Part shown: one piece after another, positions 1 to 42,712 of the stretch
How the letters are laid out: the number at the start of each line of letters is the position of its first letter
Numbering within the stretch: the stretch's first letter is position 1
Sequence record: PQ850615.1
DNA length: 42,712 bases
Source of the DNA: Escherichia phage LotteLoewe_Bas71
Reading direction: 5' to 3' (one strand)
Translations under genes and position numbers: made by a program
Notes under the pieces: generated by a model
What the model was told of the DNA's origin: nothing
The model's database searches: none
Seen by the model: the letters and a program-made list of their open reading frames with translations, nothing else

Positions 1-39
1 GTGCGCTCTGATGGTCAGACGCATATGCAAGGGGATTCT

Positions 40-549
40 ATGAAGCTGAAACTTAAGCAGCCATCGCCAGAGGTGGTACAAGCTGCACATGAAGAAGCTG
101 TTAGCGCAAACCGTCGCCGTAAACGACCGCGCGGTAAACAGAGCCTTTATCAATCATCCCGTAATTCTGCGGCATTGTGGGACCCGGACTACTGTGACGC
201 GTTAATCGAGTTCTTCGACCGCACGTCGTGGGAGCTTGTGCCAACGTCTAAGGGTGACGAACGCCCGCTGATTCAGGATAAACCACCGTCACTGGCCCGC
301 TTCGCCTTACACATCGGAGTCACTATCCCGATTATTAAGCTTTGGCTGCGTGAGATTCCCGCATTTGCAGAAGCCTGGGAGACAGCACAGGCGCTGGAAG
401 AGGCATACTTCACTGAAACGGGGGCCGCGGGCATCTCTGCTACGTTTGCTGCCGCGAAACTGGGCCTGAATAAAACAGTTGTCGCCGAAGAAGTACGCGA
501 CGAGCCAATCAGCGAAGTAACAATTAAGGTGGTGTCCGGTGAACGTTAA
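40..549 (+). CDS. putative terminase small subunit
   Basis: Lies immediately upstream of and overlaps the terminase large subunit gene; basic N-terminal region. Frame is open to the window edge (GTG 1, ATG 25, ATG 40); ATG 40 has an AGGGGA SD. Confidence 0.45.
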   Translation: MKLKLKQPSPEVVQAAHEEAVSANRRRKRPRGKQSLYQSSRNSAALWDPDYCDALIEFFDRTSWELVPTSKGDERPLIQDKPPSLARFALHIGVTIPIIKLWLREIPAFAEAWETAQALEEAYFTETGAAGISATFAAAKLGLNKTVVAEEVRDEPISEVTIKVVSGER

Positions 550-1810
550 TATCACGGCAACGGAGCCGCAAGGCGCGTTTCTCGGTATGCATTGCAAGTT
601 TCCGGCATTCGTAGCTGGCTTCGGTACGGGTAAATCCGAAGTTATGTGCAACTCTGCACTACTCGACAGCATGGAAGGTGGTAGCGATTCTATCATCGCC
701 ATGTATGAGCCGACTTATGACCTGGTGCGCCTCATCCTTGCACCGCGTATGGAAGAAAAGCTCACCGACTGGGGTATCCGGTACAAATACAACAAGTCTG
801 ACAACATAATCTATACGTCTTCCGGACAATTTGGGGATTTTGTTCTGCGTACACTTGATAATCCAGCACGAATCGTTGGCTACGAATCGTTTCGTGCGAA
901 AATCGACGAGTTGGACACCCTTAACATGGAGCACGCCGAGCACGCGTGGAACAAAGTCATCGCCCGTAACCGCCAGTTGCCGCGGACATATAAACCTATT
1001 ACACCGAAACCTGCTAATACCGTTTCCGTGTTCACTACCCCGGAAGGATTCCGTTTCGTACATGACCGCTGGGTAGTCAAAAAGAATCCAGGCTACGAGA
1101 TGATTCAGGCGTCCACCCTGTCTAACCCGTTCCTGCCAGAAGATTATGTGCAGTCGTTACGCGACACATACCCAGGTCAGTTGATTGACGCCTACATCAA
1201 CGGCGAGTTCGTCAACCTGACGGCGGGGACTGTCTATTACGCCTATGACCGCAGGAAAAACAGCAGCCGCGAAACAATAAAACCAGGCGAGACTCTGTAT
1301 ATCGGGCAGGACTTTAACGTAGGCCACATGGCTAGTACAGTTTACGTGCAACGTGGCAAAGTCTGGCATGCAGTCGCCGAGTTGGTGGATATGTTCGATA
1401 CGCCCGATGTGGTGAGAGCCGTAACAGAGCGCTGGAAAAGTAAGGGCCACTATATCGTTATGTACCCCGACGCAAGCGGTAAAAACCGTAAAAGTAACAA
1501 CGCCAGCACATCTGATATTGCCCAGTTACAGCAGGCCGGCTTCGAAGTGCGCGCTAAATCGACAAACCCACCGGTTAAAGACCGCGTAGCGGCGATGAAT
1601 AAGGCGCTTGAATCTGGTATGGTCATGATTAATGAACAGGCTTGCCCTGTTACCGCACGATGCCTGGAGCAACAGGCTTACGACAAGAACGGCGAACCGG
1701 ATAAATCAGGCGGTGTGGACCACCAGAATGATGGAACCACATACCCTATCGCGTATGAAATGCCGATTCGCAAACCAGTTATTAACGTCCCGGTGACTTT
1801 CGCACTTTAA
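539..1810 (+). CDS. terminase large subunit
   Basis: 423 aa, GTG start with AAGGTGGTG SD; N-terminal P-loop-like GFGTGKS; position between small-subunit candidate and portal. Confidence 0.7.
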   Translation: MNVNITATEPQGAFLGMHCKFPAFVAGFGTGKSEVMCNSALLDSMEGGSDSIIAMYEPTYDLVRLILAPRMEEKLTDWGIRYKYNKSDNIIYTSSGQFGDFVLRTLDNPARIVGYESFRAKIDELDTLNMEHAEHAWNKVIARNRQLPRTYKPITPKPANTVSVFTTPEGFRFVHDRWVVKKNPGYEMIQASTLSNPFLPEDYVQSLRDTYPGQLIDAYINGEFVNLTAGTVYYAYDRRKNSSRETIKPGETLYIGQDFNVGHMASTVYVQRGKVWHAVAELVDMFDTPDVVRAVTERWKSKGHYIVMYPDASGKNRKSNNASTSDIAQLQQAGFEVRAKSTNPPVKDRVAAMNKALESGMVMINEQACPVTARCLEQQAYDKNGEPDKSGGVDHQNDGTTYPIAYEMPIRKPVINVPVTFAL

Positions 1811-3314: not shown

Positions 3315-3336
3315 AGCCCCGAAAGGGGCTTTCTTA
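3315..3336 (+). terminator. intrinsic terminator after portal gene
   Basis: AGCCCC-GAAA-GGGGCT stem-loop followed by TTCTTAT. Confidence 0.5.
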
Positions 3337-4881: not shown

Positions 4882-4909
4882 AAGGCCCCATTATGGGGCC
4901 TTAGTTTTC
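4882..4909. terminator. bidirectional intrinsic terminator
   Basis: AAGGCCCC-ATTAT-GGGGCCTT hairpin flanked by A-run upstream and T-run downstream; between convergent genes. Confidence 0.6.
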
Positions 4910-5442: not shown

Positions 5443-5469
5443 GCCCTGCTTTAAGGCAGGGCTTTACTT
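5443..5469 (+). terminator. terminator/attenuator-like hairpin just upstream of the spanin RBS
   Basis: GCCCTGC-TTTAAG-GCAGGGC followed by TTTACTT; 17 nt before spanin ATG. Confidence 0.4.
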
Positions 5470-7833: not shown

Positions 7834-7862
7834 GAGAGGGACTTCGGTCCCTCTTTTCATTT
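7834..7862 (+). terminator. intrinsic terminator after major capsid gene
   Basis: AGAGGGAC-TTCG-GTCCCTCT stem with UUCG tetraloop followed by TTTCATTT. Confidence 0.6.
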
Positions 7863-11958: not shown

Positions 11959-11984
11959 AAGGCCCCTTTCGGGGCCTTTTTCTC
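11959..11984. terminator. bidirectional intrinsic terminator
   Basis: AAGGCCCC-TTTC-GGGGCCTT hairpin followed by TTTTCT; between major tail gene and leftward cassette. Confidence 0.6.
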
Positions 11985-14313: not shown

Positions 14314-14675
14314 AAGCGCTGTATGAATTTGCGCAATGGTGCTTTGTCGACCGCCACAAACGTAAGCAATTCGACGACATCGCGGCGGGCCACCAGGCGG
14401 CTTTGATTGCAATGGGCGTGATTAAAGAACCGCAGATGAAAGAAGCGACGGGGCCAGAATGCCCCGTTTCTCTTATCGACGTGTTCGAGAAATACCGTGC
14501 CATTAAATTCCTACAGCGCGAAACAGATGATACTATCGTTATAATCCCGCGCGATGCGCTCAAATGGCAAGATTTGGTAGCGTTTCGTGATGTCGCCGGT
14601 TACGGCATAAGTTTGTTCGAAGCCGAGGTTATCATGGGCTTAGACGGAATATTTGAGGGCAGAGAAGATGGCTGA
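14307..14675 (+). CDS. tail assembly chaperone -1 frameshift extension (GT-like product)
   Basis: -1 frame is open from 14295 to 14675 and overlaps the tape measure start; lysine codon AAG sits directly before stop TAA with A AAA AG context (14305..14313). Confidence 0.45.
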   Translation, partial: KVKALYEFAQWCFVDRHKRKQFDDIAAGHQAALIAMGVIKEPQMKEATGPECPVSLIDVFEKYRAIKFLQRETDDTIVIIPRDALKWQDLVAFRDVAGYGISLFEAEVIMGLDGIFEGREDG

Positions 14676-23767: not shown

Positions 23768-23792
23768 AAGGCCCCGTTTGGGGCCTTTTCTC
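23768..23792. terminator. bidirectional intrinsic terminator between tail and replication arms
   Basis: AAGGCCCC-GTTT-GGGGCCTT hairpin followed by TTCTC; flanked by convergent operons. Confidence 0.6.
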
Positions 23793-29526: not shown

Positions 29527-29551
29527 GTAAAAAGGCCCAATGAAGGGCCTT
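29527..29551 (-). terminator. intrinsic terminator after SSB-like gene
   Basis: On the minus strand AAGGCCC-TTCATT-GGGCCTT followed by TTTTTAC. Confidence 0.5.
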
Positions 29552-42634: not shown

Positions 42635-42658
42635 AGCCCTCTACGGAGGGCTTTTCTG
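42635..42658 (+). terminator. intrinsic terminator-like hairpin near window end
   Basis: AGCCCTC-TACG-GAGGGCT followed by TTTCTG. Confidence 0.45.
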
Positions 42659-42712
42659 TACATCCCGCCCAATCCCCTTATATAATCCCTTTAGACGCGT
42701 AGGGCGCGTCTG

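Follow-up and report, generated by a model that had tools for sequence, protein, structure and literature searches.

A candidate two-hairpin leader RNA at the head of the terminase operon in Escherichia phage LotteLoewe_Bas71 and related siphophages

The genome of Escherichia phage LotteLoewe_Bas71 (sequence record PQ850615.1; 42,712 nucleotides, the whole stretch of DNA analysed here and referred to as the window) ends in a palindrome that, on the circular map, lies just upstream of the small terminase gene terS. We lean towards reading this palindrome as hairpin 1 of a two-hairpin RNA of about 44 nucleotides at the 5′ end of the messenger RNA (mRNA) of the terminase and structural operon, acting by a mechanism like that of the put RNAs of phage HK022. 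This overall judgement is a compromise between two parts of unequal strength. It is highly probable, from the comparison of related sequences, that the element is a selected structure of the 5′ leader RNA, and we propose only tentatively, by analogy, that its mechanism is put-like antitermination or antipausing.

An earlier note made from the sequence alone had pointed to the palindrome, to TATATAAT upstream of it, and to a CAGACGC motif at both window termini. Direct reading placed the palindrome, AGACGCG-TAGGG-CGCGTCT, at 42693-42711, with G42712 as the final base, while TATATAAT was found at 42679-42686 and CAGACGC at 16-22 on the plus strand, with its reverse complement at 42706-42712. Taken alone, the palindrome and the heptamer are within chance expectation. 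CAGACGC was counted six times on the two strands of the window compared to 6.75 expected, indicating no enrichment, and perfect 7-base-pair stems with loops of 3-8 nucleotides numbered 44 compared to about 17 ± 4 in dinucleotide shuffles, most of the 44 being terminators. The heptamer at both termini turned out to be a by-product, since one copy belongs to the 3′ arm of hairpin 1 and the other to the 3′ arm of the second hairpin described below; this second copy is not conserved among relatives. A switch-like helix pairing the two copies was tried and rejected, because 12 of the 24 aligned sequences break two of its seven pairs, and a search around the junction for direct repeats of the terminase-binding type gave short two-copy matches only. 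We nevertheless take the palindrome as real because of its context and conservation, namely the contiguity of the two window ends in other records and the two hairpins that show compensatory changes across several genera.

The window is a complete, circularly permuted genome of a Kagunavirus (Guernseyvirinae). Over its last 813 bases it is 100% identical to phage KMB35, and in KMB35 and BUCT825, two records opened at other points, the window end adjoins its start: CGCGTCTG runs directly into GTGCGCTC or, given over a different extent, TAGGGCGCGTCTG into GTGCGCTCTGATGG, so that the final window base is directly followed by the first. The 75-nucleotide leader spanning this junction is uninterrupted in about 130 phage records. 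Four BASEL Kagunavirus records (Bas70, Bas72, Bas73 and Bas74) share the exact end base with the window, and the SETP3 record also ends there. The BASEL methods give the first nucleotide of the terminase gene as the point at which circular contigs were cut open (PMC11990801). Bas74 is a circular record in which the terminase (Bas74_0001) is annotated at 1..549, and the open reading frame (ORF) at 1..549 of the window, with a GTG start, is the same ORF. Judged from these records, the window edges are a convention and not DNA ends, and the idea that they are meaningful is not supported. The record was opened at what is probably an over-extended GTG start of terS, and the boundary falls between the two hairpins because this GTG lies inside the 5′ arm of hairpin 2.

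Record starts in this phage group are inherited conventions clustered around the terS leader. The cut point of the window is common to SETP3 and several Jerseyvirus records, and several Dhillonvirus records (L132 at 1-48; L065-L067 and L070; for example EP23) begin exactly at the homologous promoter TATAAT, 76 nucleotides before terS. No record in the phage collection matches the whole genome exactly: the window TerS is 100% identical to that of Bas74, but in the tail-spike and helicase region identity reaches at most 97.5% with Bas76 and 95% with Bas72.

Across the rejoined junction, the element is preceded by a promoter. The -10 hexamer TATAAT (42681-42686, plus strand; direct reading and promoter scan) forms the core of TATATAAT, and the -35-like hexamer TGTACA (42657-42662, plus strand; promoter scan) lies 18 nucleotides upstream of it. 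Together they match the sigma-70 consensus at 10 of 12 positions in the promoter scan (positions 2258-2287 of the locus L001, equivalent to window positions 42657-42686), and their spacing is within the 16-18 nucleotides of sigma-70 promoters. In other lineages the -35 hexamer reads TTGCCA, TTGCCT, TTGGTG or TTGCGC, 16-17 nucleotides upstream of their TATAAT, and each of the 66 related loci that extended far enough upstream had a TAYAAT, typically 6-7 nucleotides (4-7 across lineages) before hairpin 1. The suggestion that this region could be the terminase promoter was therefore essentially right. From the promoter geometry, transcription is predicted to start at A42693 (plus strand), 7 nucleotides after the -10 hexamer, which is also the first paired base of hairpin 1; six bases separate TATAAT from the hairpin.

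Hairpin 1 (42693-42711, plus strand; reading, folding and alignment) has a stem of 7-8 base pairs and the loop UAGGG. A single linker nucleotide, G42712 (plus strand; reading and folding), joins it to hairpin 2, GUGCG(C)UCUGA-UGG-UCAGACGCAU (1-24, plus strand), in which C6 is bulged, the UGG triloop occupies 12-14 and the 3′ arm, 15-24, holds the CAGACGC copy at 16-22. The linker is one nucleotide long in the Guernseyvirinae and three in Dhillonvirus. The Shine-Dalgarno sequence of terS, AAGGGG, was read directly at 29-34 (plus strand), and a purine-rich element occupies the equivalent place before the terS ATG in all lineages. Alone, the 44-nucleotide element folds into exactly two hairpins (-22.4 kcal/mol, z score -3.15), one of 200 shuffles folding as well, and the Kagunavirus and Jerseyvirus leaders give the same two-hairpin fold. 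We rejected both hairpins as intrinsic terminators, since no U-run follows either, the sequence after hairpin 1 being GGUGCGC and that after hairpin 2 AUAUGCAAGG.

Immediately upstream, a hairpin that is terminator-like by sequence, AGCCCTC-TACG-GAGGGCT followed by TTTCTGT (42635-42659, plus strand; direct reading, perfect 7-base-pair stem, folded), ends the preceding transcription unit of holin, endolysin, small ORFs and a NinH-like gene, although it narrowly fails the T-run rule of the terminator scan. A comparable GC hairpin with a T-run stands before the promoter in the Jerseyvirus, SE1-like and Dhillonvirus loci, with different stem sequences.

The terS loci compared here were gathered by protein similarity and not by the hairpin motif. 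In every one of the 66 loci the TAYAAT was followed by two hairpins, in 39 distinct leaders. These come from Kagunavirus, Jerseyvirus, the SE1/St162/PhiSTP2-like phages, Pantoea phage AH01 and its relatives, Dhillonvirus, and Edwardsiella phage eiAU (Eiauvirus); the module is kept in at least these six lineages, whose TerS proteins are 30-50% identical to that of the window. The stems vary yet stay paired, UCUGA/UCAGA being replaced by UAUGA/UCAUA, GCCGA/UCGGC or UUGGA/UCCA. RNAalifold applied to an unfitted MAFFT alignment recovered hairpin 2, with compensatory changes at six of nine pairs. In the model-based alignment A7, which holds 24 distinct sequences, standard pairs made up 98.7% of 391 cells, and 7 of 17 pairs and 30 cells were altered on both sides; none of 500 shuffles reached the observed values and slid controls were 18-62% paired. 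Hairpin 1 was 100% paired in A7, with three of its seven pairs altered on both sides, and hairpin 2 had four of ten pairs altered on both sides. The invariant positions are those of the loops. They comprise the GGG of loop 1 and, in hairpin 2, the UGG triloop together with the pairs that close it; the hairpin 2 apex, G-A-U-G-G-U-C, is invariant or nearly so and in AH01 reads GGUGGUC, an A-U to G·U change.

A functionless chance palindrome might be entertained because about 17 seven-base-pair palindromes are expected in a genome of this size and composition. We give this reading next to no probability; it is already contradicted by the comparative data, in which pairing is conserved across genera with the support of covariation and the position relative to the promoter and terS is fixed in all of the 66 loci.

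The covariance model R2 found one copy of the element per genome, always before terS, and in the window matched only the two ends; a second copy elsewhere in the window genome, as with putL and putR, was not found with this model. R2 also recovered members outside its seed (L068 at 1.8e-7, PhiSTP2 at 2.2e-14 and AH01 at 1.7e-9) and gave weak matches at exactly the expected position in the most distant members, the locus L081 (0.013-0.03) and eiAU (0.04-0.08). When viral contigs were scanned for the motif and evaluated with the covariance model, model-positives among the matches listed came only from the same phage groups. Klebsiella phage NewHawk, whose TerS is 28% identical, is without the element, and a Vibrio record that begins at terS holds no upstream leader and is uninformative on this point. 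A search of the junction with Rfam 15 at E ≤ 10 gave nothing except a spurious match to nos_TCE, which spans the uncut junction on the opposite strand. The two-hairpin motif has no Rfam family, and no mention of it was found in the literature searched; a structured cis-regulatory mRNA leader is a familiar kind of element, and from these searches this particular motif appears to be undescribed.

The stems of A7 also showed a marked wobble asymmetry, with 31 G·U cells compared to 3 A·C cells, and therefore the pairing is selected on the sense strand, which points to RNA and not to a DNA palindrome or cruciform. This bears on the possibility that the palindrome is an operator for a phage protein, either TerS or a small upstream protein, which would act by RNA autoregulation or by repressing the promoter through the palindrome from +1 to +19. 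The palindrome does cover the start site, the classical position of an operator, and a NinH/Fis-like protein is encoded directly upstream (PF06322, with an E of 3e-5 that is below the curated cut-off; annotated in the same way in KMB35). However, a palindrome acting as DNA should not accept 31 G·T cells and yet shun A·C, and the half-site sequences change freely while pairing persists. In addition, the loops are invariant, yet the candidate phage proteins diverge to about 30% identity. We thus regard an operator as very unlikely.

The wobble asymmetry bears equally on the packaging site proposed in the earlier note, whether a pac site for the start of headful packaging or a cos site, which we consider improbable to the point of being remote. 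The element resembles the pac sites of P22, SPP1 and P1 in adjoining the terminase genes, directly upstream of terS and terL, in a headful-packaging group, and TerL of K1G and K1H clusters with that of headful phages. In classical headful phages, however, pac usually lies inside terS. The known pac sites are double-stranded DNA, whereas the present element would be an untranslated leader upstream of terS that evolves like an RNA helix; selection for pairing on the sense strand is not needed by a double-stranded recognition site, and conservation of the kind expected for one was not seen, as the stems vary with pairing kept, G·U far exceeds A·C, and the heptamer is neither enriched nor conserved in its second copy. 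The window ends, being conventional, lend it nothing. Among relatives, PhageTerm predicts pac-type packaging for Shashou (PMC6776780) and P1-like headful packaging was predicted for the Jerseyvirus K47 (PMC10783031). Relatives also argue against cos: the ends of Se_F1 are redundant, random and permuted (PMC9409062), K47 has a circular-like restriction map (PMC10783031) and fBC-Eco01 is without termini (PMC9825357). With the end and start contiguous in other records, the BASEL contigs circular and the relatives permuted, fixed ends at this site were rejected. The proposed packaging region was therefore not borne out, cos being excluded by the permuted headful ends of relatives and pac lacking support from a conservation that is of the RNA type.

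If the element is a leader RNA, it could serve purposes other than acting on RNA polymerase. One is protection of the 5′ end, in which the stem at +1 would hide the end from RppH and RNase E and prolong the life of the terminase and structural mRNA, leaving the polymerase unaffected. Stem-loops at the 5′ terminus, such as that of ompA, are an established mRNA-stabilising device, and hairpin 1 resembles them in lying, by promoter geometry, at or within 1-2 bases of the transcript 5′ end. It stands at the predicted +1 in almost every lineage, the spacing between the -10 hexamer and the stem is held at 6-7 nucleotides, and folding indicates that the stems are stable. Nonetheless, a stem alone would suffice for a stabiliser, and devices of the ompA type have no requirement for loop sequence, whereas here lineages at 30% TerS identity have kept the GGG, the UGG triloop and the pairs that close it without change. 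The second, equally conserved hairpin and the fixed short linker would be superfluous, and in the locus L082 and AH01 the first three bases of hairpin 1, AGA, are unpaired, although this AGA at the predicted +1 is retained even in that lineage. Taken together, we consider stabilisation as the sole function unlikely, if worth serious attention.

Translational control seems to us rather less plausible still. The hairpins might keep the Shine-Dalgarno sequence open or form the core of a three-way junction that buries the terS ribosome-binding site in read-through RNA, where AAUCCCCUU from the promoter region would pair with AAGGGGAUU in RNA coming from upstream; the G-rich loops could also be ribosome standby sites. 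Consistent with this, 42671-42684 and 24-37 share a complementarity of 14 nucleotides (86%), and the 131-nucleotide read-through RNA folds into exactly this junction (z score -4.4). The duplex outperformed shuffles in Kagunavirus, Jerseyvirus, SE1 and L082, and SE1 supplies one compensatory change (AAUCUCC/GGAGAUU). On the other hand, it was no better than shuffles in the loci L076, L068 and L081 or in PhiSTP2, eiAU and AH01, the ATG lies anywhere from 15 to about 21 nucleotides beyond hairpin 2, and in RNA initiated at the promoter the ribosome-binding site stays unpaired with or without the hairpins. As an observation in its own right, the promoter spacer, -10 hexamer and discriminator (42671-42692; AATCCCCTTATATA, again AATCCCTTT) are complementary to the Shine-Dalgarno region of terS, TATGCAAGGGGATT (24-37), and this anti-Shine-Dalgarno segment is absent from RNA started at the promoter.

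We return to a leader RNA that acts on RNA polymerase, which we favour because of an architecture matching that of put, the absence of any Q- or N-like annotation, and the presence of terminator-like hairpins inside the operon. The promoter before terS would start the transcript at A42693, placing the two hairpins at its extreme 5′ end, and the leader would act in cis on its own transcript. Its partner would be a component conserved across Enterobacterales hosts and not a fast-evolving phage protein, because the loops are invariant while phage proteins diverge. The nascent element may thus bind the elongating host RNA polymerase in the manner of the two-stem put RNAs of HK022, so that polymerases from the terS promoter would read through terminator-like hairpins in the structural operon of about 24 kilobases.

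The put RNAs consist of two stem-loops adjoining with no or one unpaired nucleotide, downstream of a promoter (PMC9378689). The window shows the same arrangement of adjacent stem-loops after a promoter, with G42712 as the only linker and six nucleotides between TATAAT and hairpin 1. Like HK022 put, the element would be a cis-acting structured RNA of two abutting stem-loops in a phage whose host is E. coli or a close relative. Like putL, it directly follows a sigma-70 promoter, at +1, and heads a long phage operon with terminators, here terminator-like hairpins. Furthermore, putL and the Kagunavirus element share the opening pattern AGACG...(G)GCGCGUCU, which in putL reads AGACG...CGCGUCU. Within the operon, GC hairpins with T-rich tails were found on the plus strand in short intergenic gaps after the portal gene (3315-3330), before the spanin genes (5443-5462) and after the major head gene (7834-7855), as well as between genes near the tail chaperone genes (14447-14468). 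No promoter-like site follows any of the four, and at 3315, 5443 and 7834 the gaps leave no room for a promoter. The curated annotation of the Bas72 genome lists no Q- or N-like protein.

Several observations weigh against this reading. The element is only 44 nucleotides long compared to about 73 for put, and its simple hairpins of 7-8 and 10 base pairs are without the pseudoknot/triplex and the long irregular stem II of put; in put stem I the pairs A3-G7:C15-U19 are joined by C10-G14:C30-G34, an arrangement not found in the element. When the models R1 and R2 were searched against the whole HK022 genome at E ≤ 5-10, they gave a single noise match elsewhere, and the model R3, built from putL and putR, matched none of ten terS leaders while finding both put sites (E 1e-19 to 1e-20). 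Only Kagunavirus and Jerseyvirus share AGACG and GGCGCGUCU with putL, and putR has neither string. The terminators inside the operon are no more than matches to the consensus, and their total does not exceed that of shuffles (27 found compared to 21.8 expected). The first of them lies 3.3 kilobases downstream, leaving no close one for which the leader would plainly be needed. Protection of the 5′ end would account equally well for a hairpin that begins exactly at +1. Because A7 was fitted to the structure and is drawn from related phages, its cell counts overstate the number of independent compensatory events. Finally, for every member the start site, the RNA and its activity are predictions from sequence.

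The two elements also differ in their conserved nucleotides, which are the GGG and UGG loops here and G35-A9, U28 and A64 in put. In addition, the present element precedes a late/structural operon of virulent siphophages in one copy, whereas put serves the early operons of a lambdoid temperate phage in two. Homology to put was rejected, as pairwise alignment yielded nothing except the AGACG and GGCGCGUCU strings and the covariance models failed in both directions, and on these comparisons the element is not a recognisable member of the put family. Rfam is silent on any likeness to put, but it holds no put family and HK022 put itself is unmatched, which makes this silence uninformative. A putL-like pseudoknot (GGGCG with CGCUC) can be drawn for Kagunavirus only; it clashes with the lower stem of hairpin 2, which covaries, and Jerseyvirus has lost it. 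We also rejected the apex GAUGGU of hairpin 2 as a -10-like, sigma-dependent pause of the putL kind. The apex reads GGUGGU in AH01 and GACGGU in L082, and therefore its A behaves as a member of a base pair (A-U to G·U) and not as an invariant -11 A.

Antitermination in phage lambda offers further comparisons. Like the PR′-qut-6S region, the window has a promoter and a short leader before packaging and structural genes, with nin-type genes, including the NinH-like gene, just upstream. Lambda late antitermination, however, needs Q, which binds promoter DNA, and a sigma-dependent pause, whereas no Q homologue is annotated here; moreover, the window has its lysis genes before the terminator and promoter, and lambda has them after PR′. 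Lambda boxA reads CGCUCUUA, and the Kagunavirus CGCUCU, in the 5′ arm of hairpin 2, matches its first six bases and is followed by a hairpin. In contrast to lambda nut, this string is base-paired, there is no N protein, and it reads CGCUAU in Jerseyvirus, GCGUUAU in SE1 and UGUUGCC in Dhillonvirus. Likenesses to lambda boxA, to the RfaH ops element (GTAG in loop 1), to the CsrA motif GGA and to the hammerhead core CUGAUGA were all rejected, none being conserved across the lineages.

For the original observation these results are mostly deflationary, since the promoter was right, packaging is unsupported, and the terminal motif is an artefact, produced by opening a circular map within a leader. 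They place a conserved RNA motif at the start of the operon for packaging and structural proteins in phages that are often isolated and are used for therapy and synthetic biology, and they make the leader a testable candidate for the expression of a 24-kilobase operon with terminator-like hairpins in phages without a known late regulator. More speculatively, and with considerable doubt on our part, the element may be a compact two-hairpin "mini-put" of about 44 nucleotides, a minimal, protein-independent modifier of host RNA polymerase. If this were true, it would serve several virulent siphophage genera (Kagunavirus, Jerseyvirus, the SE1/AH01-like Guernseyvirinae, Dhillonvirus and Eiauvirus) and carry transcription from one promoter through the terminators of the structural cluster. 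Processive antitermination by RNA alone would then reach beyond a handful of lambdoid prophages to a large lytic group that is commonly isolated, and a much smaller RNA than put would be available for study.

The position of the leader also affects the annotation of terS. The gene most likely runs from ATG 40 (40-549, plus strand), residues 1-166 from this start matching phrog_3064 terminase (E 2e-75), and all tblastn matches to TerS start at the Met of ATG 40. In SE1-like phages the in-frame (A/G)TG farther upstream leads into an in-frame TGA, and in Dhillonvirus the upstream (A/G)TG does not share the terS frame. The annotations differ, with BUCT825 starting at ATG 40, KMB35 at ATG 25 and the BASEL records at GTG 1, and the GTG at position 1 is probably an over-extension. 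By the same comparison, bases 1-39 are read as structured leader, and terS is 39 nucleotides (13 codons) too long in many records. A leader peptide from AUG 11, in the loop of hairpin 2 (11-43; MVRRICKGIL, 10 codons), was rejected because neither its length nor its frame is conserved. Its stop codon TGA overlaps the terS ATG, and a 12-codon equivalent in SE1-like phages has the same overlap; the Jerseyvirus counterpart stops after 5 codons and L082 has ACG. We do not think that this mini-ORF is translated. The large terminase gene, terL, follows at 539-1810 (plus strand; Pfam Terminase_6N and Terminase_6C, E about 1e-11).

Elsewhere in the window, no transfer RNA genes were found and no Rfam family reached its gathering score. 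Three promoter-like sites on the minus strand, TTGACA-17-TATAGT (11 of 12 matches; 32584-32556, 30284-30256 and 26573-26545), face the leftward replication-gene cluster. Near-identical hairpins of the form AAGGCCCC-N3/4-GGGGCCTT, scored as minus-strand terminators, were found at 4882-4902, 11959-11978 and 23768-23787, with a variant at 29532; those at 4882, 11959 and 23768 adjoin short runs of minus-strand ORFs within or ending the plus-strand structural block.

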